Of a stretch of DNA of 24,000 bases, positions 9,301 to 24,000 are shown piece by piece. The stretch is from Bradyrhizobium sp. CCGE-LA001 (GTDB lineage: Bacteria > Pseudomonadota > Alphaproteobacteria > Rhizobiales > Xanthobacteraceae): the NCBI RefSeq assembly GCF_000296215.2, contig NZ_CP013949.1:7298248-7322247 (forward strand), read 5' to 3'. The position numbers were made by a program, and so were the translations under genes. The notes beneath the pieces were generated by a model. The model was not told where the DNA came from. It worked only from the letters and a program-made list of their open reading frames with translations, and ran no database searches. How positions within the stretch are numbered: the stretch's first letter is position 1; each line of letters begins with the position of its first letter.

Positions 9301-9664
9301 CTTCAACCTGCCCGCCGGCCACGATATTCCCGGCTTGCCAATTATACCCCGCGAACAGGTCGACCATCGAACCGGTCACGTCGCCCGAAAGAATGCTCGC
9401 AGTCGTCCCGACCAAGGTCGAGTTCGACGTCACCACGCCGGCGTTGGTCGAGAGTGAGCTGTTGGCGAAACTGCCAGTCGAGGAGTCCGTCGCATGTCCG
9501 GCGCCCGCACCGAAATAAGCGCCGATATAGGGCCCGGCCCAGCTGTTGACCCAGGCCGGTCGGGGTGGCGCCTTCACAGTCAGGTCGGCGGCTAGAGCTC
9601 CGGCAGAAACCATGATCGAGGCGCCAGCCAATGAAGCGCCCGTCAGTGATGTCAGCTTTTTCAC
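6362..9664 (-). CDS. Outer-membrane protein made of four tandem Omp25/Omp31/RopB-like (OmpA-like, 8-strand) beta-barrel modules behind one signal peptide
   Basis: One uninterrupted ORF; the track gives 6362..9877. I place the start at the in-frame GTG at 9664, preceded by GGGGGGTTGGG. This gives MKKLTSLTGASLAGASIMVSAGALA-AD, a normal signal peptide, whereas the 71 residues upstream are non-protein-like. Four units each begin W-A-G-P-Y-[IL]-G-A-Y-F and each end AD[FL]H..KIG.VY.F. Confidence 0.8.
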   Translation of the reverse strand: MKKLTSLTGASLAGASIMVSAGALAADLTVKAPPRPAWVNSWAGPYIGAYFGAGAGHATDSSTGSFANSSLSTNAGVVTSNSTLVGTTASILSGDVTGSMVDLFAGYNWQAGNIVAGGQVEGTVFSDVALKPFGNQTFNSVSTNVLLGVVTSTTAGSATVQSNQQLRSRVGLIGRLGFLARPDLLLYGLGGLELGHFTFADSADPFGGGNNKWVAGYTVGAGGELKLTGNWSLRGEYRYLNFGFNRSAATNSTASSATGATTFVSTSSESSSTRTNADFHLAKIGLVYQFGDSGPLSAMAAIPPAGRGASFASAWGDSWAGPYIGAYFGAGAGRARQTSTRIDDEGSVSTVGGTSAFTQSGFGNLAGDMTGSMVDLFAGYNWRTGNVVAGGQIEGTLFSDVTTKTVGNEAYSSVSTNNGVVTSTSSGTNRIEDRQQLRSNVGVIGRAGYLVTPSVLLYGLGGLALGHLTYPDGYPDSEVRVGGKNGKWVAGYVAGAGGEVKLTDSWSLRGEYRYMHFGYDGNEPTGSSQTSVSGGGTTTSTNSTVNGRHIDADFHVGKIGLVYQFGASGTRSAMAALPSPAWNDGWAGPYIGAYFGAGAGRAAETIATNNTSTSTITIVGTTTSTSTQSTNGRPVGDVTGSMVDLFAGYNWRAGSVVAGGQIEGSVFSDVTFKTIGPHTFTSVDTSNGAVTSTSSGSQTAGNRTQQQLRSNVGVIGRAGYLVTPNVLLYGLGGLALGHFTYADGDFSSGGANGKWVAGYTLGAGGEVKLTGNWSLRGEYRYTHYGFGRNEGSNFASSTQSTGSSSTSLSTDSTTRQINADFHTGKIGMVYRFGEGGPRSAMAALPGAPSDHWAGPYLGAYFAAGAGRARQILASTADSAQQNFNGAVQTTDFVGNTTTRGSAAGDTTGSMVDLFAGYNWRAGNIVAGGQIEGTLFSDVAFKMNGEQTSNTRQVLNGVVTTSVNPTAMQASEQLRSNVGVFGRAGYLVTPKLMLYGVGGLALGHFTFPDPGGVNGPNGKWVAGYTAGAGGEFKLTQRWSLRGEYRYLHFDIDRAETRTSSSTQIQGATTILRANADSTSRKTSADLHIAKIGAVYAFCYCD
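6365..9541 (-). repeat. Four in-frame direct repeats of ~750 nt (coding repeats, one beta-barrel module each)
   Basis: Module coordinates, from the conserved Trp codon to the VY.FG end: 8792-9541, 7967-8710, 7166-7909 and 6365-7111. The Trp codons fall at residues 113, 390, 657 and 923 of the track ORF (spacing 277, 267 and 266 aa). Blocks conserved in all four are TGSMVDLFAGYNW..GN/S.VAGGQ.EG..FSDV, QQLRS.VG..GR.G.L, L.YG.GGL.LGH.T., KWVAGY..GAGGE.KLT..WSLRGEYRY and AD.H..KIG.VY. At the DNA level, TATTC[GA]CCGCGCAGCGACCA recurs near 6537, 7327, 8130 and 8955. Confidence 0.85.
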
Positions 9665-9673
9665 CCCAACCCC

Positions 9674-9691
9674 CCAATTCCAATTCCAATT
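9674..9691. repeat. (CCAATT)x3 tandem hexamer; (AATTGG)x3 on the coding strand of the OMP gene
   Basis: CCAATTCCAATTCCAATT was read directly. It sits 10-27 nt upstream of the proposed GTG start (9664), directly abutting the G-rich RBS. It is the source of the WNWNWNW peptide in the over-extended ORF. Confidence 0.7.
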
Positions 9692-9892
9692 CCAGAACAA
9701 GAAAATGTTACCGGAAGAGCAGATGAAAAGCCGTTGCGCGCATACAACAAGTTCGACGTTTCGGAGTCGAAGCCGACCTAAGTTATTGATACTTATATGA
9801 AATGCGTCAGGTTGTCGCACTTGGAAGATGCAACTTAATCCTGCACAGCGCGACAACATTGTCGCGCGAGGCCGCATCAGCTCGGCGCCTCA

Positions 9893-9931
9893 TCCCAAAA
9901 CAAAAATGGCCCGCATCAAGCGGGCCATTTT
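9893..9931 (-). terminator. Rho-independent terminator downstream of the tRNA-Met 3' end
   Basis: AAAATGGCCCGC (9903-9914) and GCGGGCCATTTT (9920-9931) form a perfect 12-bp stem with loop ATCAA. On the minus strand the stem is followed by TTTTTGTTTT. It lies 27 nt after the tRNA CCA end (9958). Confidence 0.75.
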
Positions 9932-9957
9932 CGTATCGGATCCGGTCAATCCGAATT

Positions 9958-10002
9958 TGGTTGCGGGGATAGGATTTGAACCTATGACCTTCAGGTTATG
10001 AG
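9958..10002 (-). pseudogene. 3' half only (anticodon loop to CCA) of an initiator-type tRNA-Met(CAT) gene; probable att junction of the integrated element
   Basis: The minus strand reads CTCATAA-CCTGA-AGGTC-ATAGG-TTCAAAT-CCTAT-CCCCGCA-A-CCA. This gives an anticodon loop with CAT, the 3' anticodon stem, a variable loop, a complete T-arm, the 3' acceptor strand, the discriminator and CCA. It closely parallels the remembered E. coli tRNA-fMet 3' half (GGGCTCATAACCCGAAGGTCGTCGGTTCAAATCCGGCCCCCGCAACCA). The 5' partner strands (TCAGG and [CT]GCGGGG) are absent from the 80 nt upstream, which is AT-rich unrelated sequence, so the gene is not intact. Confidence 0.75.
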
Positions 10003-10152
10003 TATGAATTTCACAGTTTTCTGGAGTTATCCCAAGACCTCTTGCTTTACCTAAGCCACTTAAAATACTAGTGAAATCTAGCATCGCGATTTCCCGAGAT
10101 ATCCTGCCATTCCCGTTACGGTGGCGACTCGGTGGCGATTCTGGAGGTCAAT

Positions 10153-11391
10153 GTGCCGGTACTGAAGCTGACGCGGAGAACGATCGACGCAATCGAACCC
10201 GTCGACAAGCAGACCATCTTTTACGACAGCGAATTGACCGGTTTTTGCCTCAAGGTCCTTCCCTCCGGCGTCCAGAGGTGGTGCGTCGAATACCGTAGCG
10301 GCGCCGGCGGGCGGAGCGTCGGCAAGACGCGGATGGTCCTTGGGTCCGCCTCGAGCATGACGCCCGACCAGGCGCGCGCTAGGGCCAAATCAACCCTCGC
10401 TGCTGTGGCTCTCGGACAGGATCCCGCCCGCAAGCGCTCGACCGAACGTGCCATGCCAACCTTTGCCGAGTTTGGCGAGCGCTATCTCAGGGAGGAGGCC
10501 GCGGCAAAACTAAAGCCGCGAACGGTCGTCAACTACCGTATCTACCTGCGTAAGCACGCCGCCCCCCTCCTGGGCACCCGCAAGCTCGATGCGCTCGATA
10601 GTGCCGCCATCTCGAAGATGCACCGGAAGATCGGCAAGGAGACGCCGATGACCGCGAATCGGGTCGTCGAGTTCATCGGATCCGTCTTCCGGTACGCTGC
10701 CGTCTGCGGCCTCGTTACCAAGGGGCACAATCCCGCGAGTCATGTCCAAGCATTCCGCGAGCAGCGCCGCGAACGGTTCCTGAGCTCACCGGAACTAGGC
10801 CGCCTGGGAGACGCCATTCGCGAAGCGGAAACGGTGGGCATTCCGTGGGCTGTGGACAAAGACCAGCCGAACGCGAAGCACATCCCGAAAAACGGTCGCA
10901 CGAAAATCGGGCCTCACGTAGCGGCTGCATTGCGCCTCTTGATCCTCACTGGCGCCCGACTGCGCGAAATCCTCGAGCTCAAGTGGGAGTATGTTGACCT
11001 CCAGCGCGGCCTGCTCCTGCTCCCTGACAGCAAGACGGGACAGAAGGCCATCATTCTCAATGCACCGGCTCTCGACATCCTTGGCAAGATTCCCAACGTC
11101 GATTGCTACGTGATCGCCAGCGATATCAAGGGCCAGCCTCGGCACGACCTGAATAAGCCTTGGAAGCTCGTGAGCACGCGATCAGGCCTCGAAGGCGTAA
11201 GAATCCATGACCTGAGACATACCCACGCCAGCTATGGCGCAGGCGCAGGCTTTGGGCTGCCCATTATCGGGAAGTTGCTTGGCCATTCGCAGCCCGCGAC
11301 CACCGCCCGGTATGCGCATCTGGACAATGATCCGTTGCGGCGAGCATCCAACCAAATCGCAAAGGCACTAGCGGAAGCCATGGGCGACTGA
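10153..11391 (+). CDS. int: Tyrosine recombinase / phage-type integrase with N-terminal DUF4102-type arm-binding domain
   Basis: The track ORF is 10132..11391. I prefer the in-frame GTG at 10153, 5 nt after GGAGG (10143-10147). The N-terminus (V)PVLKLTRRTIDAIEPVDKQTIFYDSELTGFCLKVLPSGVQRWCVEYR is the typical arm-binding domain of tRNA-targeting island integrases. The catalytic signature is LILTGARLREILELKW (Arg), HDLRHTHAS (His-x-x-Arg) and LLGHSQPATTARYAHL (His...Tyr nucleophile). Confidence 0.9.
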   Translation: MPVLKLTRRTIDAIEPVDKQTIFYDSELTGFCLKVLPSGVQRWCVEYRSGAGGRSVGKTRMVLGSASSMTPDQARARAKSTLAAVALGQDPARKRSTERAMPTFAEFGERYLREEAAAKLKPRTVVNYRIYLRKHAAPLLGTRKLDALDSAAISKMHRKIGKETPMTANRVVEFIGSVFRYAAVCGLVTKGHNPASHVQAFREQRRERFLSSPELGRLGDAIREAETVGIPWAVDKDQPNAKHIPKNGRTKIGPHVAAALRLLILTGARLREILELKWEYVDLQRGLLLLPDSKTGQKAIILNAPALDILGKIPNVDCYVIASDIKGQPRHDLNKPWKLVSTRSGLEGVRIHDLRHTHASYGAGAGFGLPIIGKLLGHSQPATTARYAHLDNDPLRRASNQIAKALAEAMGD

Positions 11392-11405
11392 CTCCGGGTG
11401 TCGAC

Positions 11406-12131
11406 GTGTCCTTAAACAACAAAGTGAGTGAGTTCACTGATATGGATGATTCCGACTTTCACCTCGTCCAGCCACCGTTTGCCCAACTAGATGAAGCGCT
11501 ATGGTGGATCGAGTTCAAGCAGATTGAAGAAGCCAAGCGAGACGGTTGGACATCAACACTTGAGAGCGCAAATCGGCTTGAAGCCGCTTTGCTCAATGGC
11601 ACACTTCAGGGATACGGCTCCCTGGATGCCGGGCCTGTGCAGCTCATCCAACAATGGACGTGGACCGAGTTTGAGTTTCTCCCCGCTGATCGCGATGGCC
11701 GGCGCATCGAAAAAAAGGTGGATTATATTCCCCAGTTCATAGTCCGCTCCCTCAAAGCCTACCGCGCGGAGGCGCTTAAAGACTTGAGCCAGCCGGCCTC
11801 CAAGCTCCTGCCAGGCCTGAATGAAAATGAACCTGGGTTTCACAGGGTAATGGACCAAATTGTCTTTCTCGAATGCGATCTGCGGCGAGTATTTCCTACG
11901 GAAATCGTTCAAACTAAAGAAGACCCGCCGCTCGATAAAAAGTACCCCAGGTTCCTAAAGGAAATTGAGGGCGAAAAGTACCTCCACAGTCCCGCGCCGG
12001 TCGGGTTCGACCACGTCTTTGGTCTACTCATTGAGTATTTGGAACGGACGGGGCAGCTCAACTCCGTCGACAGTTCGGTCCGGAAGGGGCTTCAACGCCA
12101 CTACAAGGAATTCAGCAAGCACGGACAATGA
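11406..12131 (+). CDS. Hypothetical protein (241 aa), island-borne, low G+C
   Basis: A long ORF in the most AT-rich part of the window, with a protein-like composition rich in E/K/L/F/W. It starts at GTG 11406, 15 nt after the integrase stop, or alternatively at ATG 11442. No motif was recognised. Confidence 0.55.
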   Translation: MSLNNKVSEFTDMDDSDFHLVQPPFAQLDEALWWIEFKQIEEAKRDGWTSTLESANRLEAALLNGTLQGYGSLDAGPVQLIQQWTWTEFEFLPADRDGRRIEKKVDYIPQFIVRSLKAYRAEALKDLSQPASKLLPGLNENEPGFHRVMDQIVFLECDLRRVFPTEIVQTKEDPPLDKKYPRFLKEIEGEKYLHSPAPVGFDHVFGLLIEYLERTGQLNSVDSSVRKGLQRHYKEFSKHGQ

Positions 12132-12234
12132 GACAAAGCAAGACATGTCCGCACTTGTCTGAACAGCTCTCTGCTTTCCCCTTGTAGGACTGGGTTGCCG
12201 GCAGCGCGTCGGCAATTCAAAGGGGAAAAACTTG

Positions 12235-12456
12235 ATGATCGAAAAAGCAACCGAGTCGTCCAAATGGCTGACTCGGAAAGAAGCCGCCGCCTACTTGCGA
12301 CTCGGTGAGAGCACGCTTGCAAAGCTGTTTGTCTCTGGCGACGGACCACCGGCCATCAAGATTGGGCGGTCCGTTCGCTATTCTGCGCTCGACCTGAACG
12401 CGTGGATGGGCTCTCGCCGGCGACGCTCGACGTCTGACAGCGGCTCCGCCGCGTAA
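12235..12456 (+). CDS. Small HTH DNA-binding protein, AlpA/excisionase-like (MerR-type HTH_17)
   Basis: The sequence WLTRKEAAAYLRLGESTLAKLFVSGDGPPAIKIGRSVRYSALDLNAWM matches the 'L+.+EaA.yLg.s..Tl.........P....g....Y....L..W' pattern of prophage/island excisionase-type regulators. The ATG at 12235 is preceded by AGGGGA (12221-12226); the track starts one codon earlier at TTG 12232. Confidence 0.7.
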   Translation: MIEKATESSKWLTRKEAAAYLRLGESTLAKLFVSGDGPPAIKIGRSVRYSALDLNAWMGSRRRRSTSDSGSAA

Positions 12457-12466
12457 GGTTGGGCCA

Positions 12467-13108
12467 ATGGACGTACGAGCCTTTAACCGCGAGAAGATGC
12501 AGTGGCTCAATGCCATCAGTCTTGAGTGCGAGGTCAACTCTACCGCCTTTCGGGTCGCTTATCTTATTGCCGATCATCAAAATTCAGTGGCTGGATTCGC
12601 TTGGCCATCCCTCGCTCGGCTGGCCGGGAAAGTCTGCCTATCGAATAAATCGATTCAGCGGGCGGTCGGGCAGCTGGAAAGACTGGGATGGCTTGAGGTG
12701 GAGCGAAGAAGGGAGCGTTCTAACCGATATCGCTTGAGATGGCCGCCTGGACGAGCCCCGGCGCCCAGGCCAACCGAAGGCAATGATGCAGACAAAACTG
12801 TCCTCGTGGAGAGACAAGAACGTCTCACCGGAGGGGACAAAACTGTCCGCCAATCCTACTTAACTAAATCCCTTAAAACCTTCTCAAGTCGGCTTGGCGG
12901 AGGAAGGCAAGGAACTCGGTTCGCCGATCAAGGCAAATTCGAAGCTGAGATCATTGGGCGATTTGGACCGGGCATGATCGACGTGCTTGAAAAGCTGAAC
13001 GAGATCGACCCCCGCGCCGTCGAACAGCTTTGCCGGCGGGCGAAAAATGGAACCTTGTCACGCGTCGACATTGCCGCTGCTGAGCTGACCGTGGCGCAAA
13101 ATCAATAG
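12467..13108 (+). CDS. Winged-helix DNA-binding protein (island replication/regulatory-type HTH), function unknown
   Basis: The sequence FRVAYLIADHQNSVAGFAWPSLARLAGKVCLSNKSIQRAVGQLERLGWLEVERR has the helix-turn-helix-wing layout seen in phage and plasmid initiator or regulator proteins. It follows the AlpA-like gene by 10 nt. Confidence 0.55.
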   Translation: MDVRAFNREKMQWLNAISLECEVNSTAFRVAYLIADHQNSVAGFAWPSLARLAGKVCLSNKSIQRAVGQLERLGWLEVERRRERSNRYRLRWPPGRAPAPRPTEGNDADKTVLVERQERLTGGDKTVRQSYLTKSLKTFSSRLGGGRQGTRFADQGKFEAEIIGRFGPGMIDVLEKLNEIDPRAVEQLCRRAKNGTLSRVDIAAAELTVAQNQ

Positions 13109-13117
13109 GACCGAAGA

Positions 13118-13492
13118 ATGACAGAATTTGACGAGATATTGTCGAGAGCGCTCGACGCGGCGCGATATTACTACCCGCGTTTGAGCGCAGAGGTCTATGT
13201 CTTTCCAAAGCCAGCCGATGCGGCGCAGCCGCCCGAACCCGCCGCATCGCAACTTCGCGAAAGGAGCTGCCGCATCGCTATCACATGGGTGGAGAGATTA
13301 TTGACGAATGGCGAGTTTGACAAAGGGGCCATCACGATCAGTCAGTTGCGGTCTCGGATTTTTCGTAGCGACCGCATCTTGATTCCGCGCGAGATCATTC
13401 TTGCGATCGCAGTGTACAAATGCGTTGAGATATTCGTCGGCGGACATGATGTCTGGCTCGGGAAGCTCTGGGATGGACCGGTACCATTTTAG
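13118..13492 (+). CDS. Hypothetical protein (124 aa)
   Basis: The ORF starts 9 nt after the previous stop, is co-oriented with it and has a reasonable composition. No motif was recognised. Confidence 0.45.
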   Translation: MTEFDEILSRALDAARYYYPRLSAEVYVFPKPADAAQPPEPAASQLRERSCRIAITWVERLLTNGEFDKGAITISQLRSRIFRSDRILIPREIILAIAVYKCVEIFVGGHDVWLGKLWDGPVPF

Positions 13493-13732
13493 TTGTCTCT
13501 CGTGCTGCGGGAGGGTTTTTAATGTATCCCACGGCCGCGATGTCGGCGCAGAGACGCGGGAGGCTTCCTTGTCGATGCCAATCGAGGCCGAGGGCGAATG
13601 GGGGGACTGCTTCTCATCTCTAAATTCTAGGTAAGGCCATCACAGAATGTCCCCGTGGGGAAGAAGCTGGTCATCCCGCTTGCGGGTCACATCGTCACCG
13701 AGAACAGTTGTTAGCCCGTCACCTCGGACAGG

Positions 13733-16105
13733 TCAGCGATTGCGTGGACGGAACGTAAAGCGGGCCGCTTCGGCGAAAGCCTGAGCGAAGCGCTCGCTGC
13801 CGGTCTTGCGGTCCACAAAGATTTCATCCTCTCTTTGAAGCGCATTCGCGGAAATATCCGGGCCGGTGTCAGTCGCGCGCGTCTCCGACGGGTCGCGGCC
13901 GGCGGCGGCGACGTATACGGCGCGCAATGCGGTGAGGACGGCGGCTCGCATGCCTTCGTCGTTGAGGCGTTCACGTAACCGGATCTGGGCATCATCTCGA
14001 CCTTCCGCGACGGGTTCTTTGTTAGGAAGGAGACAAGCCACGAGCGGATGGAGGCCATCGGTCGGCAGGTTCTGTCCAGCGATTTCGGCGACCAGCGCCG
14101 CGGTTTCCGTGGTGAGCCCGACCTCGCAGGCGAGAGCAAAAAGCAAATACGGATAGAGCGGTGTCTTGCCGACGCCGCCCGCCTCCAAGTCCGCAATGCC
14201 CGTGGGCCCACGCATCACGCGGATTAGGCGGTAGGTATTGACCAGGCGCTTCAGCCCGCGCGGTGACTTTCCTGCAAGCGGCGCCATGGCCGCCAGCGCT
14301 CGCCGCTCGAATTTTGACATCGTGGCTCGTCGTTGCGCCGCGGTTTGAAATAGCGTGGGATCGGGCGCCACGTCGATCGGCACCATGTTGTCCTGGCCCT
14401 GCTGCCCGCCTTTGTCACCGGCGGCCTGCCCCGGAGAGTCTGCGGGCTCTTCCTCCTGTTTATCGATGCCGCTGACGAATGTCTCGACCATTCCGGGATT
14501 GCTGATGGGCTGCATCCAGATCGGCAGCTGGAAAATCTTTTCAAGGTAATCGGCGACAGTTGCGCCAGCGGGCTGTACCGGTTGGTCGGCATCACCCGGT
14601 TGCCCGGGCACCGCAAGCTGGCCGCTGTAGACCTTGCCGACAGCGCGATGCAGCCAGCGGGCATCGACGGCAACGACTACGACGAAAAGGTCAAAGGCAA
14701 GGAGAAGGTGGATTGCCTGCAGGACCTGCACAACGTGCTGCTCGGAGCAGCGGTCAAGATCGTCGATATAGACGATGATGCGTCGCACCTCGGGAACGTG
14801 GGTGAGATCGGCTACTTTGTCTGCTGCGGGCTTGGAGTTGCCTTCGGCGGGTTTGACCTCCGCCGGCGCTGCCGCACGCTTCTCGTGCATGATCTGCTCG
14901 AGGGTTACGAAGCACCGCCTGACCGTCGCGAGAAGCCCAAGCTTCTTGCGCACCTCGGCAAGCTCCGGCGAGTAGGTAATGAAGTAGCGCAGCAGACCTT
15001 CGCGAGATCGCCCCTCGGCCGCGAGGCTGTAAGAGGCCGCGAACTCCGTTGCCTTCTTCTGCTCGGCGATCATGGCGTCGAGCTTCTCGCGTTCCTTCTT
15101 GACCAACTCAGAGGCTTCGCGCCGCTCATTGTTTAGCTCGGCAGCTCGCTTCTCCTTGCGGGCGAGGAATTCGGCGGCTAGCGAGAGGATCGGCGTCGCG
15201 GTGCCGATCGCGATCGCAGCCGTGCCGATCAGCGTTCCGAGCACAGCAACGGAAGGAAAGGCACTAACGATGTAGGACCAAATCTCCGGGACACGTCCCC
15301 AACCGAGATACCAGACGGCCCCGCCGACTCCGATGGTAAGAACGGCGAGGGCTGCAGTGAGCCCATAGATGATGCCCCGGCTGAGACTGCGGCGCAGCAG
15401 CACGAAGAGCAGCCCGGCGCGGCTCGGCAGATCGAACAACCCCGACAGGAGCGACGCAAGCTTTTCCGGATCGCGCTCGCCGGTCGGTACACCGCACGCC
15501 TGCAACAACTCGTCGAGACGCTTCTTGTGGGCTTCGGCCTTTTCGACTTCGCGCCTCTTGTTCGGGTCCTTTTTGTCTTTATCGCTGAGTTCCTTCGGGG
15601 TTGCTTTTGTGATGAGTTCTTTGGCCATCTCGCCTGCCACGGTCGCTGCCACTGGCTCGTGCTCGAGGCCTACGAGCTTTGTCTCGGCCGCCTGTATAGC
15701 CTCGCGCTGAAGTTCGATAGCGCCTTCTACCAGCGGCGAAGCTTCGGCGTCCCTGCGCAGTCGCTTGGCGATCTCTGTGATCAGGCCGGTCCTAAGCTTA
15801 CCGTCCGGTGCGCGGCCGTCGATGGCATCGGCAAGCTGATCGAACAGCTCTGCTGTAAGGGAAGCCCAGAGGTTTTCGGCATCGGCATGACTCCAAGCAT
15901 CGAAGTTAATCTGCACCACCTTCGGCGCCGCCGGCACACTCGGTTCCGGCGACGTGCGCGCGGCAATTTGATCCTTTAGCAGGCGGATAAGCGTACTCTT
16001 TCCCGAACCCCAAGGACCGAACACTCCAACCGCGACCGGCGGCTTGAGGTCATCGAGCAGTAACAGATCAGCAAGCGCCGCCGCATCGCTCCCGGTGTTG
16101 AGCAA
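13733..16105 (-). CDS. KAP-family P-loop NTPase with transmembrane helices inserted inside the NTPase domain
   Basis: The Walker A motif is VGVFGPWGSGKSTL. The Walker B motif is RRIIVYIDDLDRCSEQHVVQVLQAIHLLL, about 410 residues later; DDLDRC is the KAP family signature. In between lie charged coiled-coil-like stretches and hydrophobic segments (GLLFVLLRRSLSRGIIYGLTAALAVLTIGVGGAVWYLGW and IWSYIVSAFPSVAVLGTLIGTAAIAIGTATPILSLAAEFL). The called start is TTG at 16105, with GAGG 5 nt upstream. Protein-like KAP N-terminal sequence continues upstream in the same frame without a start codon (see findings). Confidence 0.85.
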   Translation of the reverse strand: MLNTGSDAAALADLLLLDDLKPPVAVGVFGPWGSGKSTLIRLLKDQIAARTSPEPSVPAAPKVVQINFDAWSHADAENLWASLTAELFDQLADAIDGRAPDGKLRTGLITEIAKRLRRDAEASPLVEGAIELQREAIQAAETKLVGLEHEPVAATVAGEMAKELITKATPKELSDKDKKDPNKRREVEKAEAHKKRLDELLQACGVPTGERDPEKLASLLSGLFDLPSRAGLLFVLLRRSLSRGIIYGLTAALAVLTIGVGGAVWYLGWGRVPEIWSYIVSAFPSVAVLGTLIGTAAIAIGTATPILSLAAEFLARKEKRAAELNNERREASELVKKEREKLDAMIAEQKKATEFAASYSLAAEGRSREGLLRYFITYSPELAEVRKKLGLLATVRRCFVTLEQIMHEKRAAAPAEVKPAEGNSKPAADKVADLTHVPEVRRIIVYIDDLDRCSEQHVVQVLQAIHLLLAFDLFVVVVAVDARWLHRAVGKVYSGQLAVPGQPGDADQPVQPAGATVADYLEKIFQLPIWMQPISNPGMVETFVSGIDKQEEEPADSPGQAAGDKGGQQGQDNMVPIDVAPDPTLFQTAAQRRATMSKFERRALAAMAPLAGKSPRGLKRLVNTYRLIRVMRGPTGIADLEAGGVGKTPLYPYLLFALACEVGLTTETAALVAEIAGQNLPTDGLHPLVACLLPNKEPVAEGRDDAQIRLRERLNDEGMRAAVLTALRAVYVAAAGRDPSETRATDTGPDISANALQREDEIFVDRKTGSERFAQAFAEAARFTFRPRNR

Positions 16106-17112
16106 GTCGGCCTCGGTCCGATCATTCGCAAACGCATGGGTTTCGCCAGCGGCGCGGGGGGCAGGCTTACCTGCCGCATCTCGTCTAAGATCGGGCCCCA
16201 GGACTCGAGCTTGTCGCCCAGGTTTACGTAATTCTTAATTTCGTCCTGAACAATCCGCGTCAATGTATCGCGCCAGCTGATAAAGTTCAGTCCAGCGGCA
16301 TCGCTGGCTACACGCCCTATCTCTTCAAGGACGAGTCCGGCGAGGAAGTGCCGCACGCCGCCTTCAAGGTACGAGACATTTGTCTTTTCGCGCAGCAAGG
16401 ACATACGAAGAAGAATGGCTACGAGTTCCGGACCAACGATCACGTTGCTCGCACTCGCATCAATTGTCGTTTCGGACGGGAAATCGAACTGCCCAAGCTG
16501 AGTGGGCGTTGCACTGGAATATTCGCGCACTATCCTCGGCAGGAATACGCTCGGCCTACTCGCCATACCTTGCCCAATCTGCCGGTGCAGCAGCGCATCG
16601 AAAACCTGACGTGGCCGCAAAATCCGATCGTGGTCGAGCCGGGTCGCAGCAATCCGAAGCAGCCGTCCAAGGTTTGCCGAAACATAGGGCACGGCGCTCT
16701 CAGGCCAGGTGAACGCGAGAATGTCCTGTAGAGCAGCGCCACGGTCTCGTGCCGGCGCCAGCGGATCCGCCAGAGGAGCGATACCGTTCTGACCGATCGT
16801 GCCGGTCCCCTGCAGCGTATCTGGTTCTTCACCAGCAGCCTGCTGCTCTCTACTGCCCGCTTGTTCGTCGAAATCGGATTCGCTCTCGTTCTTCGCCTTT
16901 CCTGGGCGTCGATCGACCCTCCGACGCAATTCTGAAAGTTGACTTTCCAATTCGATCTGCCGCGACGTCTTGGACCATCCAGGCTCCTCGGACGGCGACG
17001 CGCTTGATGAGACGGATGTCACATACGGCTTATTTCGGGCAGCCTCGAGCGCTGCGATCTCCCGTTCAAGGTTCGCTATCTGGTCATGCAGGTTACTTGC
17101 GAGTTCTTGCAT
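15976..17112 (-). CDS. Hypothetical protein: N-terminal coiled coil, acidic low-complexity linker, ~230-aa helical domain; partner of, or fused to, the KAP NTPase
   Basis: The track ORF is 15976..17178. I prefer the ATG at 17112 (MQELASNLHDQIANLEREIAALEAARNK). Codon usage is consistent down to about 16160. The last ~60 codons (PMRLRMIGPRPTCSTPGAMRRRLL...) overlap the KAP gene out of frame and look non-protein-like, so the true 3' end is uncertain. Confidence 0.55.
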   Translation of the reverse strand: MQELASNLHDQIANLEREIAALEAARNKPYVTSVSSSASPSEEPGWSKTSRQIELESQLSELRRRVDRRPGKAKNESESDFDEQAGSREQQAAGEEPDTLQGTGTIGQNGIAPLADPLAPARDRGAALQDILAFTWPESAVPYVSANLGRLLRIAATRLDHDRILRPRQVFDALLHRQIGQGMASRPSVFLPRIVREYSSATPTQLGQFDFPSETTIDASASNVIVGPELVAILLRMSLLREKTNVSYLEGGVRHFLAGLVLEEIGRVASDAAGLNFISWRDTLTRIVQDEIKNYVNLGDKLESWGPILDEMRQVSLPPAPLAKPMRLRMIGPRPTCSTPGAMRRRLLICYCSMTSSRRSRLECSVLGVRERVRLSAC

Positions 17113-17558
17113 TGCATCGCCCTCGTGCCGGCATTCAAGGTCGAGGCAGGTGAAACCGCGCCCGCGGCGACGCCTCAACGGTCGGATGCATGTAATCTAA
17201 TTCACAATCGTGACCTGTGCTACACACCGGCGTCGCGAAGAGCCGGTGGATTGCGCAACGGCGCGCAGGCGAAGGGCTGCGGCGGCACAACGCCCGCCGA
17301 CCCGCGATCATTGAGGCGTTCAGAAACTCAGGCGGAAAGCCTGAATGTGCGGAAAATGAGTCCGCAATTGGTGCGTGATTGGCCTCGCAAAGAATCTGCT
17401 TTCTGGCGATTAGCAGACTGCGGATTGAGTTCAGGACCTGCGCTTGTTAGCCCGAACCGAAGCGGTTTGAGGGAGGATGCGGGTCCCTCCGAGGACGCCA
17501 CCCCCTACGGCACAAACGCGCCCCAGAAAATCACCAGCCGCAGAGGGCGGAAGCTGGG

Positions 17559-17588
17559 TTGACAAGGTTGACACGTTGACAGTCGACA
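17559..17588 (+). repeat. Cluster of TTGACA hexamers (3 exact plus 1 TCGACA) at 9-, 8- and 7-nt spacing
   Basis: TTGACAaggTTGACAcgTTGACAgTCGACA was read directly. It lies in the ~500-bp gene-free spacer between the two minus-strand cargo units. The hexamers are on the + strand, antisense to both flanking genes. Confidence 0.6.
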
Positions 17589-17674
17589 ACAAGCGATCAT
17601 TAAGACAATTCATTTCCATTGCGCGACATCGATCAGGATGGTCCGACGGATGAGAAAGTGCGCATTTGGCGGTA

Positions 17675-18445
17675 TCAGCGCTGCGCCCAGGACAGCAGCC
17701 AGCCCGACGACAGCGTCGTGAGCCAGAGGATGACGACTAGCGTCAGCCAGGCGAATGGTACGACGAAAGCGAGAAGTGGTTCAGGCGCCTTTGCGACGGC
17801 TACCTTGCCGCTATTGCGACCCGAGGTGTAACTTGTCTGTGCCGGCTTCGTTTTCAGCCATCGGGCCAGCGCGCTGACGCCAAGGTTGATGAGCAGTGCC
17901 GCAACCAGGGCATGCGCAGCGCTGGCGGCGATCTCGTACTGGTCTCCCTTCAAGTCAAGGCTCCGCAATAGCAGACTGATTGAATCGATCGCATGGTTCT
18001 CGCGCTGGCCGGACTGGAGCTTCTCAGCAAGCAGAAACGACAGCGACAACAGGATCACCGTGACGGAAAACGCTGACACGATCGATGTCATCATCACTCG
18101 GTGCGCCAAGGATTGCAGCGGCGATTTGTCATACCCGCAGCTCACGAACATTCGAGTCAGAACAAACAGTCCGAAGACGGCCAAGAGAGCGGCGACGGCG
18201 GCAAGAAAGAAATATTCTGGATATTCTCCGAGTAGCTTGCCGTATCCGCCGGGGTGCACGCGCATCAGATGCAGCAGGAACGGCAGCGACAGCCAGATCA
18301 GCGCGGCTAGTCCGCGTTCGATGCGGCGATTACCGAGCATCGCGCGACCAGGAAAGCGCGTCAGGGTTAGCATGCTGGACGGCTCGGCCTCCGCCTCGAT
18401 CGCCTCGCTGGCAAGCACGGCTGCGGACATACTGCTGGTCGGCAT
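17675..18445 (-). CDS. Polytopic inner-membrane protein (256 aa, about 5 TM segments), unknown function
   Basis: ATG at 18445, with GGGAG 7 nt upstream overlapping the stop of the preceding gene. Hydrophobic segments are LAALIWLSLPFLLHLM, YFFLAAVAALLAVFGLFVLTRMFV, VMMTSIVSAFSVTVILLSLSFLLA, AHALVAALLINLGVSALA and LLAFVVPFAWLTLVVILWLTTL. Confidence 0.6.
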   Translation of the reverse strand: MPTSSMSAAVLASEAIEAEAEPSSMLTLTRFPGRAMLGNRRIERGLAALIWLSLPFLLHLMRVHPGGYGKLLGEYPEYFFLAAVAALLAVFGLFVLTRMFVSCGYDKSPLQSLAHRVMMTSIVSAFSVTVILLSLSFLLAEKLQSGQRENHAIDSISLLLRSLDLKGDQYEIAASAAHALVAALLINLGVSALARWLKTKPAQTSYTSGRNSGKVAVAKAPEPLLAFVVPFAWLTLVVILWLTTLSSGWLLSWAQR

Positions 18446-18458
18446 CGATAGCTCCCGT

Positions 18459-19388
18459 TTAGCGGCCCGAGGAAGTCTTCCACGTGACGGTCCGTACTAA
18501 GGGCGTGCGATCGCCATTCTTGCTCGCGCGCCACAGTCTGATCATGGTCCGATAGGGTTGCCAAGTCCTGAACGACCAGGAATCCTGGGTCGGAACACTG
18601 AAGCCGAAGCAAGCCGGTGCCGCGCTGTCACCTGCCGAAACGATAGCGAATTCAGTGGTATAGGAGCCGCGAGTCTCCGCGTCCTTCTTCTGACGCCTAC
18701 GCTCGGCGTCAGCGCCGAACACGGTCCGCAGCACCTCCATGTCGTCGGGCAACCTCTCGAAGCCGTAAGTCTTCCAGCGCTGTCCGCGGGTAACAAGATC
18801 GCTGTTACTTCCGACGCAGTCGGTGCCGCCGTCCTTCAGATCGAGATGCAGACGATCGCCTATGTTCGTTCCCAGCGGGTTGCGCGAAATGTCATCGGCG
18901 TGATTCTGGGCATATTCGCGCATGCTGACCCAGCGGCTGTTGAGCCAACGACCACCACCAAACTGCAGTAACGCCTTGCCGCCCGAGCACTCCGTTGCAA
19001 TGCCCGGCCGCCAGAGTTTGACCTTGTCTGCCTCGATCCGGCTCCCGATATCCACCCCGGGCTCCTCAATCGTTTCGGTGCGCACACTCCAGACTTCTTC
19101 CCGGCCCGCCAGGACCCTGCCGCCGATCATGAACAAGCGCGCTTCGGGGTGATATGTCAGGGCTACGCCGTTGACGCGATAATAGCGGCGGCCGTCCCCG
19201 AGGCTGCCAGCTTCGCCCGGCGCGGCAGCAATGTGGGCCGGATAAAGCAGGAACAGGCCGCGCGCAGCGCCGAGTCCGGTACAGACGGCCTGGTCGTCGT
19301 TCCAATTGGGGACCTGTGCAGCCGCCGGAGCAAGGGTCCCGAGCCACGCCACGAACATCGGTATCGGCAATAGATGAACAAAATTCAT
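18459..19388 (-). CDS. Secreted/periplasmic protein (~309 aa) of unknown function
   Basis: The track ORF starts at GTG 19418. The ATG at 19388 gives a canonical signal peptide, MNFVHLLPIPMFVAWLGTLAPAAA-QV. The rest is soluble-looking with several Cys residues. The gene is 13 nt from the next one. Confidence 0.6.
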   Translation of the reverse strand: MNFVHLLPIPMFVAWLGTLAPAAAQVPNWNDDQAVCTGLGAARGLFLLYPAHIAAAPGEAGSLGDGRRYYRVNGVALTYHPEARLFMIGGRVLAGREEVWSVRTETIEEPGVDIGSRIEADKVKLWRPGIATECSGGKALLQFGGGRWLNSRWVSMREYAQNHADDISRNPLGTNIGDRLHLDLKDGGTDCVGSNSDLVTRGQRWKTYGFERLPDDMEVLRTVFGADAERRRQKKDAETRGSYTTEFAIVSAGDSAAPACFGFSVPTQDSWSFRTWQPYRTMIRLWRASKNGDRTPLVRTVTWKTSSGR

Positions 19389-19484
19389 GTCGAACGGCCC
19401 CCGATCTCGATCAACCACAAAGTTCGCTAACGCACATTAGCGCCTGACAATAATAGAAGGATGCCCCTCAGCATCTACCAACGT

Positions 19485-22265
19485 TCACTGCTTTCCCGCC
19501 CTCTTCTGCTTCGCCACGCGCTGTTTCACCGCCTTCTCGACCGCAGCGATGAAACTGCCGACGCCGCTGTCAGTGGCAGTCGGAGCGATCGTGTCGATGA
19601 CGTGCTCGCCGAGCGCGCGGTAGGCCTCGAACTGGGTCTCCCCGAAAAACTGGTCTGTCGTTGGCTCATGCGGAAACTTCTCGTGCATGAGCGCGTAGCT
19701 GCGCACGGACAGGGGGGCGCTATCGTCGCGGCACGGCTTCATGTAGAGCAGTTTGCCGGTGCTGCGCTCAGGCAGGTGATAGGTAATGGTGGCGACGGCG
19801 CAAGGCGAGGAGGCATCGGTCAGCCTGGCGGCGATGTCGAACGACTCGAACTGCACGGTGACGCCGAGGTCGATCTCCGCCCGCCGCAGCGCGTTGCCGA
19901 GGTCCTCGAAAGTCATCTTGCAGTCCTCACCTCCGTCGCTGACGACGATGAGCCGGCACCGCCGGCGTAACATTTCGTAGATGCCCAGATTGTCGAAGTG
20001 GCCGCCGTCCGACAAGTAGACATAGTGTCGATCCGCGGTGGTGATCCCGAGCGCTTCGGAGATTAGAGGGATTGCGGAGAACAGCGGCCCCGAACTCTTG
20101 TGGCTCTTGTGTCCTTTCGGCCCCGGATTTCCGTACCACGCACCGAGACGAACGTTGAACAGCGTCATCAGGATGCTGTAGGCGGGCGACGAACTGTAGC
20201 CCATATTCGGGCTGACGGCGGCGCCGGAAACCGTCATCGCACTCCCGAGCGTGATGCCGCCACCATAGTCCCCAGTATTGCGGAAATAGCCGGCCGGCAG
20301 GCCCCCCGATTGCCCCATCGATGGCAGATCGCCGGTGCCGATCGCGAGCGGCGTTGCCGTGAACGATACCGCCTTGCGCTCCTGCCAGGCGAGTTGCGAG
20401 CTGCCGACGACGTTCAGCGCCATGTTTACTACGAGCAAAGGCGGGCGCTGGCCCGGTTTGTTTGCCGGCGCCGGCTCCCTCACCCTTGTCCCCGGCCAGA
20501 TCGTTGCAAGGCCGAGATCGTCGTTGCGGTCGAAGTCGGTCAGTTCGTTGGCCTCGCGCGGATGATGCGAGGCGCCGAGGAATGTTCGGATCAGGCGATT
20601 GCGATAGACTCCGTGCATCGAGAAGCGATTGATGTCGACAAAATACGACGTTGCAAGGGCGATCGTCATAGCTGCGGCGGCTACCGCCCAGGTCAGTCCA
20701 GTGTCGGTGTGGGCAGGAAGCAGTGCCGTGCCGTGGATATGCCAGTCGAGCACGACCGACGTCAGCACGATCAGACTGACCGTGAACACCATCGTCGCCA
20801 CAGCCATCACCAGATCGCGCGGCAGCTCCATCCACGACCTGACGTTTTCCTTGATCGTCGCTGTTGTCGATTTTGCCCAGCCGAGCAGCGCCGTTGTTGC
20901 GCCGGCGAGGCTGCCCACGCCGGCGAAGCCCGCCAACTGCAGCCTCGTTGGATGGCTCATCAAATCGAAGACGATTAGCGACCCGAGCAGCACTAGACCA
21001 AACAGAAGGAGCCAGGCTGTTGCCGCCAGTAGATGATGCCCGGCCGCGCGCGCCAACCACTCGCGCTCGCCGTCGCTCCAGTCTGTCATGTGCGTCAGCG
21101 CCACATAGATGACTTCGCCGAGGAACAGGGTGAGCATGACAACCGGCGGTCCTGCAATGATGAAAGTATGCCGCGGCGTCAGCGGTGCCGGCAGGTCGTG
21201 CAACCGGTCACCGCCATAAATCGCAAGACCAACCAATGCCGCCCCCACCGCCCAGCTCACCACGATAGCGCCAGCGACAGTTGCAAGTTTCCGCGGCGCG
21301 ATCAGAGACGCGTCGCTGGGCGGGCGTGCGAAACTCGAAAAATAGAGCGCGACAAGGCAGGCGAGTAGGCCGGTAACGGCGCTGACGCTGGCAAAAAAGA
21401 AGGTGATGCTGATCGAGAGGGGAGAATTTTGATATCCGGCGATGTTGTCAGGCGGAAAGACGAAGCCGACGTCCGTGATCGTGATGTCCGGCGGAAGGAC
21501 GAAGCCGATGGTAGCGACCGTGATCAGCGTCGCGCCGATCAGCATCGGAATGATCTCGAATACATAGAAATTGAACAGGCCGGAATCAGCCACGTCTCCG
21601 TGGGGCCCCGGCCGCTGCCCGATAGAATCCACGAACGACATACCCATGAAAGCGACCGCGATAATCGCGAGCATGGCACGCCATTCCGGTGGAGCGTTCC
21701 AAGCGCCGACCGCAATCAGCTTTACCGCTGCGACGACCAGCACGACGACTGGCAGCAGCACTAGCCAGTTAAGCAGCAGATTGCGAACATAGATCACGCC
21801 CATCGTTAACCGGTCAGCGGAGAACAGCCCGGTCCGCGGCGTCAGGTAGTTGCTGTAGTTGCGCAGGTGCCGTAGTGGTGAATTCGTGCGCATTGGTTCA
21901 TTGCCGCTGAGCTGCCCCTGCGCATCGTCGAATCCATGCCGCTGGATCCAAGCGACGAGGAAACTGCCAACATAGCCGCCGCCGGACACAGTCGACAGAT
22001 AGTCGAATTTTTCCAAAATTTGCCGCTTCGCCAGTCCCTGCACAATGCCGAGCGCGAACGCAGCGCTGCGGATTCCGCCACCCGAAAGGCACAGCGCCGC
22101 AAGCGGCGTCGCAAGATCCTCGACCAGCCTGTGATAGCGATCGATATTGGCTGCCGTATTGGCCTGAGAATTCTGCTCTGGACCGATGACACCCGAGCGG
22201 CGATAGCGGACATACTGCAGCTCCTCGAGCAACACTTCGCTGGTGTCCTTGATATCGTCGATCAT
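19485..22265 (-). CDS. Patatin-like (cPLA2/PNPLA-type) phospholipase with a large polytopic membrane insertion between the catalytic Ser and Asp
   Basis: The oxyanion motif is LCLSGGGIRSAAFALG (G62-G64). The nucleophile elbow is YLSTVSGGGYVG (Ser94), 30 residues later. The catalytic Asp motif is YLSDGGHFDNLGIYE (Asp753; codon 20009..20007). Between about residues 150 and 560 lie roughly ten hydrophobic 20-25-residue segments, for example LLLNWLVLLPVVVLVVAAVKLIAVG, FEIIPMLIGATLITVATIGFVL, ITFFFASVSAVTGLLACLVALYF, LLAATAWLLLFGLVLLGSLIVF and LVMAVATMVFTVSLIVLTSVVL. Confidence 0.85.
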   Translation of the reverse strand: MIDDIKDTSEVLLEELQYVRYRRSGVIGPEQNSQANTAANIDRYHRLVEDLATPLAALCLSGGGIRSAAFALGIVQGLAKRQILEKFDYLSTVSGGGYVGSFLVAWIQRHGFDDAQGQLSGNEPMRTNSPLRHLRNYSNYLTPRTGLFSADRLTMGVIYVRNLLLNWLVLLPVVVLVVAAVKLIAVGAWNAPPEWRAMLAIIAVAFMGMSFVDSIGQRPGPHGDVADSGLFNFYVFEIIPMLIGATLITVATIGFVLPPDITITDVGFVFPPDNIAGYQNSPLSISITFFFASVSAVTGLLACLVALYFSSFARPPSDASLIAPRKLATVAGAIVVSWAVGAALVGLAIYGGDRLHDLPAPLTPRHTFIIAGPPVVMLTLFLGEVIYVALTHMTDWSDGEREWLARAAGHHLLAATAWLLLFGLVLLGSLIVFDLMSHPTRLQLAGFAGVGSLAGATTALLGWAKSTTATIKENVRSWMELPRDLVMAVATMVFTVSLIVLTSVVLDWHIHGTALLPAHTDTGLTWAVAAAAMTIALATSYFVDINRFSMHGVYRNRLIRTFLGASHHPREANELTDFDRNDDLGLATIWPGTRVREPAPANKPGQRPPLLVVNMALNVVGSSQLAWQERKAVSFTATPLAIGTGDLPSMGQSGGLPAGYFRNTGDYGGGITLGSAMTVSGAAVSPNMGYSSSPAYSILMTLFNVRLGAWYGNPGPKGHKSHKSSGPLFSAIPLISEALGITTADRHYVYLSDGGHFDNLGIYEMLRRRCRLIVVSDGGEDCKMTFEDLGNALRRAEIDLGVTVQFESFDIAARLTDASSPCAVATITYHLPERSTGKLLYMKPCRDDSAPLSVRSYALMHEKFPHEPTTDQFFGETQFEAYRALGEHVIDTIAPTATDSGVGSFIAAVEKAVKQRVAKQKRAGKQ

Positions 22266-22285
22266 GGTGTCCGTTCCCGCGATGC

Positions 22286-24000
22286 TCAGTTCGGTGGAGC
22301 CGGAGCAACCGGCGACGCCGGCAGGCGCTGCAGTGTGACCTGCGCGGTGCCGCGATTGTTAGAGTAGTAGCAGCCGTAGGGCCCCAGGAATGGCACGATC
22401 TGGATCGCATCGTTCACGTAGAGGAAAAGCTCGCCCGATTCCGGCGCGATGAAATCGGCAACGAACTCGCGCGCGAGGTTCTGCGCGTCCCACTCCTGCT
22501 TCGCGTCGTCCATTTTTGACGCATCGATCTTGTCAGTCGGGATCAGCCGGCAGTCCTTGTTGCCGTTGTTCGCGACCGTTTCGGGGCTAGGTGCGTAGGC
22601 AAACCTGGACGGCAGCTCCTGCATCAGCGCCGGCGCGGCCTTGCGCGGCAGTTCGTCGGCCGGTCGCTTGTTATTGGCAACCAACGGCCATTCGGAGGTG
22701 CCCCACTTGCCGACACGGGCGATCGGTTGGAACCAGTCCGCGTGATACCAGCGCCGGCTAGCGAGGCCCAGGCCGTGGGAGGTGAAAAGCGACGTCGTGA
22801 AGCCGTTCGTGCCCGACATGGTCGTGCGGTCGAACCATGGCTCCACGACTTTCATCGATAGGCGGTACTGGCGGCCTTTCTCGATCCAAAGCCCGCTACC
22901 CCAGCACATCGCGCTCGTTTCGAACAGTTTGCCGGCTTGCTTCGGCGTTTCGTCGACTACGAACTCGCCCGCGGTCACGCACATCGGGGTGCTGCGTCCG
23001 GCGTACCAGTCGAACAATGAGCGGTTGCCAGCGACGAATACGGAGCCGAAAAGAGCGGTGAGCAGCACCCCCGGAAAGACCCAGGTCGATACGAGCATCG
23101 CCAGCCCGTTCGCGAGATGGCAGTTGCGCATCTCGCGCGCGAAGCTGCGTCTGCCGGCATGCTCCCGCGCCGCCTCGCAGGTTTCGCGCTCTTTGCCTGC
23201 GACAATGCGCTCCGGGTGATACCAAGCAAGTCGCGCGCGCTCGCGGATCCTGTCACGCAGCGACGTCGACCATTGATAGGCAAAAAAGATGAAGGTGGCG
23301 AGCAAGAGCGTGAGCAACGGATAAGTGCGTGCTGTCTCGAGCCACGCGGCGGCTGCCGAAGGCAGGAAAGCCTGCAACAGATCGAAGGGCACCGCGAGAA
23401 CGCGAACGGACCGATCGTTACCCTCCTCGAGCTGTTCAAAGACCCCCCCAAGTCCCGCCAGAACGGCGAGGCCGCGCAGTACGGCCACAAGTTTCGGCGC
23501 GAGAACCGGCCAGGCCAGGGCCACCGCGGCGAGCGCGAGCAGCCAGAAATAGGAAACGCGCCGCCACCACACCGTATCGAGAGTCCGTTCGACGATCGTC
23601 TCGCTGGGCGGCGGCAACTGGTCGATCGCGGCCTCGCCGGCCGCAGCATTGTCGCGCCGCGCTTGCGTCGCATTGGCCGCCGGCTGCCAGCGGACCCGCG
23701 CGCGCTTCTCCGGTGGCAAGATCAATTCCGCCGTTGCGCCGGTCGGTCCCGGGAGCCAGACCAGCGACTTCGCCGGCAGCGTCACCGGCGCATAGTTGTC
23801 GCAGCCCTTGAGCATGCGCTGCACCACGCTGTGATGCAGCACCGGCGGCCCACCATCTTTCAAGTCGCTTGCGATGCCGCGCGGACTGTAGCGATAGAAC
23901 ACAGCGGCGCCCGCGCGCGAGTCGTGCACCGGACCGATCGCCGACTGATAGGCGCGGAAATAATCGATGCGCCCGTCCTGGAAGCGCAGCTGGCCCTCGA
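22286..24000 (-). CDS. 5'-truncated gene: membrane protein (4-5 TM) with C-terminal soluble domain ending in a LecA/PA-IL-like motif
   Basis: The track starts it at GTG 23929, but the same frame stays open to the window edge (...EGQLRFQDGRIDYFRAYQSAIGPVHDSRAG...), so the N-terminus lies outside. TM segments are YFWLLALAAVALAWPVLAPKLV, YPLLTLLLATFIFFAYQW and LAMLVSTWVFPGVLLTALFGSVFVAG. The C-terminal end is GELFLYVNDAIQIVPFLGPYGCYYSNNRGTAQVTL. The stop is 20 nt before the patatin ATG. Confidence 0.65.
   Translation of the reverse strand, partial: EGQLRFQDGRIDYFRAYQSAIGPVHDSRAGAAVFYRYSPRGIASDLKDGGPPVLHHSVVQRMLKGCDNYAPVTLPAKSLVWLPGPTGATAELILPPEKRARVRWQPAANATQARRDNAAAGEAAIDQLPPPSETIVERTLDTVWWRRVSYFWLLALAAVALAWPVLAPKLVAVLRGLAVLAGLGGVFEQLEEGNDRSVRVLAVPFDLLQAFLPSAAAAWLETARTYPLLTLLLATFIFFAYQWSTSLRDRIRERARLAWYHPERIVAGKERETCEAAREHAGRRSFAREMRNCHLANGLAMLVSTWVFPGVLLTALFGSVFVAGNRSLFDWYAGRSTPMCVTAGEFVVDETPKQAGKLFETSAMCWGSGLWIEKGRQYRLSMKVVEPWFDRTTMSGTNGFTTSLFTSHGLGLASRRWYHADWFQPIARVGKWGTSEWPLVANNKRPADELPRKAAPALMQELPSRFAYAPSPETVANNGNKDCRLIPTDKIDASKMDDAKQEWDAQNLAREFVADFIAPESGELFLYVNDAIQIVPFLGPYGCYYSNNRGTAQVTLQRLPASPVAPAPPN

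Follow-up and report, generated by a model that had tools for sequence, protein, structure and literature searches.

A conserved three-gene unit around a predicted membrane-integral patatin phospholipase on a genomic island of Bradyrhizobium sp. CCGE-LA001

The stretch analysed here, referred to as the window, comprises 24,000 nucleotides (nt) of Bradyrhizobium sp. CCGE-LA001 (contig NZ_CP013949.1, positions 7,298,248 to 7,322,247), and four genes read from its minus strand, termed g1 to g4 in the direction of transcription, lie at its right-hand end. The window holds the 3' part of g1 (22286 to beyond 24000), coding for residues 336–905 of a 905-amino acid (aa) protein, with no interruption of the reading frame up to the window's final base. 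It is followed by g2 (19485–22265; 926 aa), coding for a putative patatin-type phospholipase, by g3 (18459–19388; 309 aa from the ATG at 19388, the form on record for the source genome, to which the window's product is 100% identical, the longest open reading frame (ORF) called in the window extending to 19418) and by g4 (17675–18445; 256 aa). The intergenic gaps, as read from the sequence, measure 20 nt (g1–g2), 96 nt (g2–g3) and 13 nt (g3–g4), the last one carrying a GGGAG immediately 3' of the g3 stop codon. A preliminary description, made from the letters of this DNA, had proposed four tightly packed minus-strand genes, and indeed the ORFs, the gaps, the homologues retrieved for each gene and the ratios of nonsynonymous to synonymous substitutions (Ka/Ks) of 0.14–0.24 against the B. 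guangdongense orthologues agree with it: all four are real genes under purifying selection. It had also held that every product is directed to the envelope, which is borne out by the hydrophobic helices of g1, g2 and g4 and by the signal peptide of g3.

Three of these genes, patatin, g3 and g4 in this fixed order, make up the conserved unit, hereafter the triad. The order is kept in 20 loci lying in at least six unrelated neighbourhoods, and the triad thus moves as a unit. Besides the window, these loci are the orthologous one of B. guangdongense SM32 (L001, 89–92% identical across window positions 9895–24000), those numbered L022–L025 and L029–L033, and nine metagenome loci reached from g3. 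Each inspected patatin of the closer relatives (identity of at least 42%) is directly trailed by a g3 homologue and then by a g4 homologue, as seen in L022 (whose contig ends before g4), L023, L024, L025, L029 (with a frameshifted patatin), L030 (B. betae), L031, L032 (B. brasilense) and L033 (Tardiphaga robiniae). The nine further loci came from a metagenome search with a g3 profile and carry g3 at 27–34% identity; the gene for a patatin with a transmembrane domain (patatin-TM) stands immediately upstream of g3 in 9/9 of them, and g4 immediately downstream in each of the seven whose length allows it to be seen. Among 21 genome loci found by patatin search, L001 alone has g1, g3 and g4, and in 20 distant patatin-TM loci (patatins 35–49% identical) none of g1, g3 or g4 was present (0/20), nor did these loci share any neighbour family when a common partner gene was sought among them.

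The neighbourhoods therefore divide the four-gene unit that the preliminary description had put forward, and for which it had named lack of co-conservation elsewhere as refuting evidence: patatin, g3 and g4 are co-conserved; g1 is not, being found with the patatin in the window and in two close relatives only. What stands of that proposal is a conserved and undescribed module of three genes, patatin–g3–g4, in 20 loci. Nothing describing this triad was found in curated families, in defence models or in the literature on membrane-integral patatins, DUF2235 proteins with membrane helices and patatin defence systems; the enzyme class of g2 is well known, the triad itself is undescribed. As had been supposed, g1–g4 as read in the window, the patatin core apart, match none of the known defence models or curated families.

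The product of g2 matches the Patatin profile PF01734 with 37.2 bits (cut-off 27.7; E 4.5e-9) over profile positions 1–95, Pfam aligning only the N-terminal half of the domain because an insertion splits it. The motifs GGGIR (residues 62–66), TVSGG with S94 and SDGGHFDN with D753 are present, S94 and D753 being the residues previously indicated, and G62–G64, R66, S94 and D753 are invariant in a 47-sequence alignment of homologues down to 37% identity, as are the motifs bordering the membrane domain. This domain, the polytopic insertion of the preliminary description, consists of about ten hydrophobic helices at residues 150–545, between S94 and D753, according to both hydropathy and AlphaFold2. 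The AlphaFold2 model of g2 (predicted local distance difference test, pLDDT, 83; predicted template modelling score, pTM, 0.83) shows the alpha/beta architecture typical of the family and gave human cPLA2-alpha (1cjy) and cPLA2-delta as top Foldseek matches (E 6e-4 to 2e-2, probability 0.99–1.0), ranked above PlpD, VipD, CapE and ExoU; its membrane domain had no credible Foldseek match. Sequence search of the PDB retrieved weak matches of the N-terminal half to ExoU and VipD (E 0.02–0.2), and a distant member of the patatin family also matches PF01735 (PLA2_B). The patatin-TM family counts more than 5000 homologues, and no informative domain fusion was found among its longer members. On these sequence and model features, g2 is predicted to be a membrane-integral Ser-Asp acyl hydrolase of the patatin/cPLA2 type with an intact catalytic site. 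Its catalytic domain would face the cytoplasm, given that the helix count is even, that no signal peptide is present and that Lys and Arg are distributed accordingly over the loops, and the loops at 257–284 and 511–522 would accordingly be placed in the periplasm by the same topology.

With the group IV cPLA2 enzymes (PDB 1cjy, 5iz5; PLA2_B/Patatin) g2 shares the Ser-Asp dyad, the GGGxR oxyanion motif and a large insertion between nucleophile and Asp, where cPLA2 has its cap or lid. In g2, however, the insertion is predicted to be a ten-helix integral membrane domain, whereas the cPLA2 cap is soluble; moreover, the bacterial protein lacks a C2 domain, is 11–15% identical in sequence and comes with two dedicated envelope partner genes. 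With CapV and CapE of the cyclic oligonucleotide-based antiphage signalling systems (CBASS), ExoU, VipD and PlpD it has in common a patatin-type N-terminal half with GGGxR and nucleophile elbow, weak fold matches (to PlpD, CapE and VipD) and, as far as its activity can be predicted, membrane phospholipids as the likely substrate. It differs from them in having neither the CD-NTase (cGAS/DncV-like nucleotidyltransferase) and cyclic-nucleotide logic nor features of type III, IV or V secretion, and in being membrane-integral by prediction, while theirs are soluble and recruited. CBASS in particular is set apart in that neither the operon nor the sequence upstream encodes a cyclase and that none of g1–g4 has a PADLOC match.

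The two partner genes define protein families without prior annotation: no match to g3 or g4 was found in Pfam, NCBIfam or PADLOC, and profile search of the PDB gave one match at E 1.5 for g3 and zero for g4. The g3 product starts with a hydrophobic segment ending in AAAQ, as in a signal peptide with the ending A-x-A-Q, and is thus predicted to be exported to the periplasm; it has four invariant cysteines in the alignment, is probably disulfide-bonded and is predicted to be mostly beta structure. Its homologues form 8 clusters in a word-indexed search of 5.8 billion proteins. The structure model reached a pLDDT of 59, and the Cdc50 subunits that headed its Foldseek matches in the PDB (E 0.5, probability 0.04) were discarded as noise. 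The g4 product has an acidic N-terminal tail, the conserved N-terminal motif FPG...ER..A..IW..P...GG and five hydrophobic helices by hydropathy, which would leave the N-terminus inside and the C-terminus outside. Profile-profile comparisons of g3 with the g1 C-terminus, of g4 with the patatin membrane domain and of g4 with g1 were negative (probability <1%).

The missing part of g1 was supplied from outside the window, the sequence past base 24000 being inferred from the B. guangdongense locus, which is 92% identical, and from P0279, the full-length g1 protein of the source genome (905 aa, 100% identical), which has PF09994. In the 906-aa orthologue of L001, residues 16–335 cover the entire PF09994 profile (E 7.1e-69), the 'T6SS Tle1-like catalytic domain' (DUF2235; T6SS, type VI secretion system), an alpha/beta-hydrolase, so that the window begins at residue 336, right at the end of this domain. 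Conserved motifs are GFSRG with the serine, DTV with the aspartate and GVHSDVGGGY with the histidine. The part encoded in the window comprises a linker, about 3–4 hydrophobic helices by hydropathy and a conserved C-terminal domain of ~240 aa, and nothing in the Pfam, NCBIfam and PADLOC scans matched it. Hence the statement that no product but the patatin is recognisable is right inside the window and fails at the missing N-terminus, as g1 is predicted to be a second lipase-type enzyme, a membrane-anchored Tle1-like (DUF2235) protein. Its C-terminus had been called lectin-like; the likeness to PA-IL/LecA is limited to a short motif of 32 columns around LYxND...YxNNxG (hhalign probability 6%, E 0.006), and Pfam had no match to this region even at E up to 10.

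In L001, 620 bp lie between g1 and the next gene upstream, a divergent Tc-toxin/RHS gene, which makes g1 the first gene of the operon; the look beyond base 24000 that the preliminary description had advised thus yielded, by way of L001 and P0279, both the N-terminus of g1 and the start of the operon. As claimed there for the operon, no cyclase, NTPase or secretion gene occurs within it, and none was found ahead of g1 in the L001 sequence upstream. The divergent gene (L001 2–6643, minus strand, at least 2214 aa) is of the Tc-toxin B/C type with SpvB, FG-GAP, TcdB middle N/C and RHS-repeat domains, a content that points to a polymorphic toxin.

Compared with the T6SS effector Tle1 (PF09994; PDB 4o5p, 9j3f), g1 has the whole catalytic domain and the Ser-Asp-His motifs; unlike it, g1 carries membrane helices and the ~240-aa C-terminal domain, has no VgrG, PAAR, Hcp or Tli neighbour and belongs to a family, 1115 clusters at 50% identity of ~900-aa membrane proteins, whose members are normally stand-alone genes. 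Neither a VgrG, Hcp, PAAR or other delivery gene nor a Tli1 immunity gene was found in the 24-kb window and the 7 kb upstream in L001, and relatives of g1 have no T6SS neighbours. We place g1 in a widespread class of Tle1-like lipases that are anchored in the membrane and have no relation to type VI secretion. Relatives that are 63% (Bradyrhizobium sp. YR681) and 45% identical to g1 are solitary genes with no patatin nearby. A g1 precedes the patatin in three loci, the window, L001 and the metagenome contig L022, which are 81–100% identical and for this reason count as one evolutionary event; g1 is a recent, lineage-specific addition to the triad. A DUF2235 lipase gene has come to lie beside the triad independently a second time, in L037, a distant triad in which a convergent 542-aa Tle1-like gene (6839–8467, minus strand; PF09994 E 1.6e-63) lies directly after g4, followed by a serine recombinase gene (8625–9791, plus strand).

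Divergence from B. guangdongense is uneven along the island that holds the operon. The synonymous divergence (Ks) is 0.49 for the patatin, 0.31 for g3, 0.13 for g1 and g4 and 0.07 for the neighbouring KAP-family NTPase gene, the patatin being the fastest-diverging gene of the island. Within the patatin gene, 300 nt at 21245–21544 are only 67% identical between the two species, with 39 gap positions; they encode the low-confidence loop at ~257–284, predicted to be periplasmic, and the adjacent helices. Such a mosaic points to an exchange of alleles or to the fast evolution of an exposed loop.

We tentatively interpret the triad as a partner-gated, self-directed inner-membrane phospholipase employed in conflict or envelope stress, a reading to which we would give somewhat short of an even chance. 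The patatin active site would lie against the inner leaflet of the cytoplasmic membrane, with the membrane domain, in the position of the cPLA2 cap or lid, governing the access of lipids. Since only g3 contributes much mass to the periplasm, and since g4 is membrane-spanning, the two may together form a control arm from periplasm to membrane that turns the lipase on or restrains it, and this control would need no nucleotide second messenger. In effect, the cell would hydrolyse phospholipids of its own inner membrane, either suicidally, as an abortive defence or as a response to attack, or in a graded manner, as a remodelling of the envelope under stress. The Tle1-like lipase encoded upstream would stand outside this core, as a second effector that was added to it.

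Several features of the loci argue for this interpretation. Triads recur beside mobile elements, namely a tyrosine integrase in the window, L041 and L042, a serine recombinase in L037 and insertion sequence (IS) elements or transposases in L025 and L032; one has an AbiU-like neighbour, and the operon of the window is flanked by the KAP gene and, as seen in L001, by the Tc/RHS gene. The lack of a nucleotide-signalling or secretion partner and the second association with a lipase in L037 point the same way. So do the invariant catalytic residues and the membrane helices of the patatin, the close linkage of the three genes and their purifying selection.

Other observations weigh against it. In strains of the B. 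betae type the triad has a stable place in the chromosome, next to an enoyl-CoA hydratase gene and surrounded by genes of metabolism, regulation and efflux, and such a setting suits housekeeping lipid turnover no less than defence. Most of the wider patatin-TM family exists without g3 and g4, so these are not required for the basic function of the enzyme. The PADLOC scan that had been proposed gave zero matches for g1–g4 and none for one distant triad (PADLOC-DB 2.0), and a single weak relative was retrieved from 2.9 million viral contigs. The topology of the patatin is read from hydropathy and charge alone, and the g3 model is weak (the pLDDT given above) with no fold match, which makes the 'sensor' role of g3 a positional guess. 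Any contact of g3 or g4 with the patatin is likewise hypothetical. A role of the triad in phage defence or in antagonism is possible on what is so far anecdotal evidence. The more specific proposal that the triad performs messenger-free envelope surveillance, with g3 as sensor and g4 as adaptor gating a lipase that destroys its own inner membrane upon phage entry or attack by a competitor, and with modules of the Tle1-like lipase type recruited as extra effectors, we consider unlikely.

The chromosomal site just mentioned is also an argument for seeing in the triad no conflict system at all. A membrane-resident phospholipase A or lysophospholipase complex could turn over or reshape inner-membrane lipids as a housekeeping or adaptive activity, for example under stress or in symbiosis, with g3 and g4 as structural or substrate-handling subunits. 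This would suit the syntenic position of the triad in several Bradyrhizobium genomes near enoyl-CoA hydratase, MarR/TetR and efflux genes, the very large size of the patatin-TM family, whose members (more than 5000) are mostly stand-alone genes in ordinary neighbourhoods, the lack of matching defence models and the near absence of the family from viral contigs. Yet the triad is patchy in distribution and repeatedly found near integrases, recombinases, IS elements and defence or toxin genes, the hydratase gene is on the opposite strand, and both the patatin Ks of 0.49, against 0.07–0.13 for its neighbours, and a hypervariable loop predicted to face the periplasm count against such an activity; we rate it as a serious explanation, but a somewhat improbable one.

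Strict linkage of a lipase with two small partner genes, in fixed order and mostly with very short spacers, would also suit a toxin with its protectors. The lipase or lipases would then be self-toxic and g3 and g4 constitutive inhibitors or immunity proteins, in a selfish cassette that stabilises mobile islands or in a shield against the related lipases of competitors. The periplasmic location predicted for g3 is also that of the immunity proteins of Tle-type lipase effectors, and both the mobile-element contexts and the two independent arrangements in which Tle1-like genes adjoin the triad could be quoted in its favour. However, g3 is linked to the patatin and not to the Tle1-like gene, and its direct inhibition of an active site inferred to be cytoplasmic is unlikely from the periplasm. 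Further, the 24-kb window and 7 kb upstream contain no VgrG, Hcp, PAAR or other delivery gene, the membrane helices of both lipases speak against secretion, and most patatin-TM relatives do without such partners; taken with these objections, a toxin-protector pair appears to us quite unlikely. Least probable is a true four-component system, in which the triad could not do without the Tle1-like protein and perhaps not without the KAP NTPase either. The 20-nt gap between g1 and g2 on the same strand, the retention of the arrangement in B. guangdongense and one metagenome contig, and the other Tle1-like gene abutting the triad of L037 would be accounted for. But the three loci with this arrangement are one evolutionary event, as judged from their 81–100% identity; beyond them (window, L001 and L022) a Tle1-like gene is within reach in one triad locus, L037, where it is of different architecture (542 aa, convergent), and a KAP gene in none; and the 63%- and 45%-identical relatives of g1 are solitary genes.

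Among the membrane-killing effectors of bacterial immunity and virulence, patatin lipases are the most common. To our knowledge, all characterised patatin effectors are soluble, being brought to the membrane or switched on by a ligand. The patatin-TM enzyme would reside permanently in the inner membrane, and one clade of it is locked to two envelope proteins, which raises the question of what restrains a resident phospholipase from attacking its own membrane and what releases its activity. Under our preferred reading of a partner-gated lipase, if the partners were a periplasmic trigger, a signal would be passed into a lipase effector with no need for a nucleotide messenger.

The location of the operon on an island, as first suggested from the sequence, was confirmed. 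A tyrosine integrase gene (10132–11391, plus strand, 419 aa), a 241-aa ORF and an HTH_36 (helix-turn-helix) protein gene succeed one another on the plus strand at 10132–13108, and the G+C content falls to 0.55–0.60 over about 9000–13500, versus about 0.63–0.68 over 1500–5500. Integrase, HTH protein and low G+C mark an integrated island, of which 10132–13108, with the low-G+C stretch, is probably one end; no tRNA gene is present in the window.

Between this end and the operon, on the minus strand (13733–17178), lie the gene of a 790-aa KAP-family P-loop NTPase, ~1.6 kb downstream of g4 on the same strand and island, and that of a 400-aa protein without family which precedes it and whose ORF, as called, overlaps that of the NTPase. 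The NTPase has hydrophobic helices inserted at ~244–315 and weak matches to the QatA, PifA and PDC-S20 models (73.7 bits against a QatA cut-off of 600), and both products are 95–99% identical to those of B. guangdongense. Its position had been taken as a functional hint in the preliminary description. Like the patatin it has a membrane insertion, but it is not co-conserved with the triad elsewhere; since it never adjoins the triad outside this lineage, it provides no evidence of function and was rejected as a component of the system. The KAP gene and the ORF preceding it are separate cargo of the island, and may represent an independent two-gene defence candidate.

Some neighbours of other triads deserve mention. 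In T. robiniae (L033) the triad is followed by the AIPR/AbiU-like gene (11063–12823, minus strand; PADLOC E 2e-34), and it is preceded at 65 nt, in the slot of g1, by a gene for a 606-aa membrane protein without family (4116–5936, plus strand); further upstream lies the gene of a protein of >4000 aa (1–3970, minus strand) with no Pfam match on record. In L023, L024, L030 and L031 an enoyl-CoA hydratase gene is convergent to g4 at a distance of about 24 nt (10775–11545 in L030), a possible link to fatty-acid handling; in genomes of the B. betae type it is followed by genes for MarR/TetR regulators, an RND/MFS efflux pair and a ClpS-AAA protein.

The g2–g3 spacer of the window (19389–19484, minus strand, 96 nt) contains two minor elements. 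The palindrome CGCTAA-N6-TTAGCG, reported before at 19424–19441, is indeed present, one base further on (19425–19442), as a single copy in the window, where 0.04 would be expected by chance; in L001 and L022 its arms differ on both sides with pairing retained. Since patatin and g3 are separated in other triads by roughly 15–70 nt only, mostly about 15–20 nt, the 96-nt spacer with its palindrome is lineage-specific. At 19460–19475 (minus strand), 10 nt past the patatin stop codon, a short GC-poor hairpin (GATGCTGAGGGGCATC) is followed by CTTCTATTATT and could act as a weak terminator or attenuator before g3, bearing in mind that the scan for hairpins with T-runs found 8 sites against 5.2 expected by chance.

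Two long minus-strand ORFs are found in the left part of the window. The one at 2293–5412 codes for a 1039-aa protein with an adenylate/guanylate cyclase catalytic domain, an AAA_16 ATPase of the STAND (signal transduction ATPase with numerous domains) type and TPR repeats; it lies outside the island, 12 kb away, and is unrelated to the operon. The other (6362–9877; 1171 aa) has matches to OMP_b-brl in four stretches, OmpA_membrane, Opacity and DUF5777, and looks like a repeated or fused beta-barrel architecture of unusual length.

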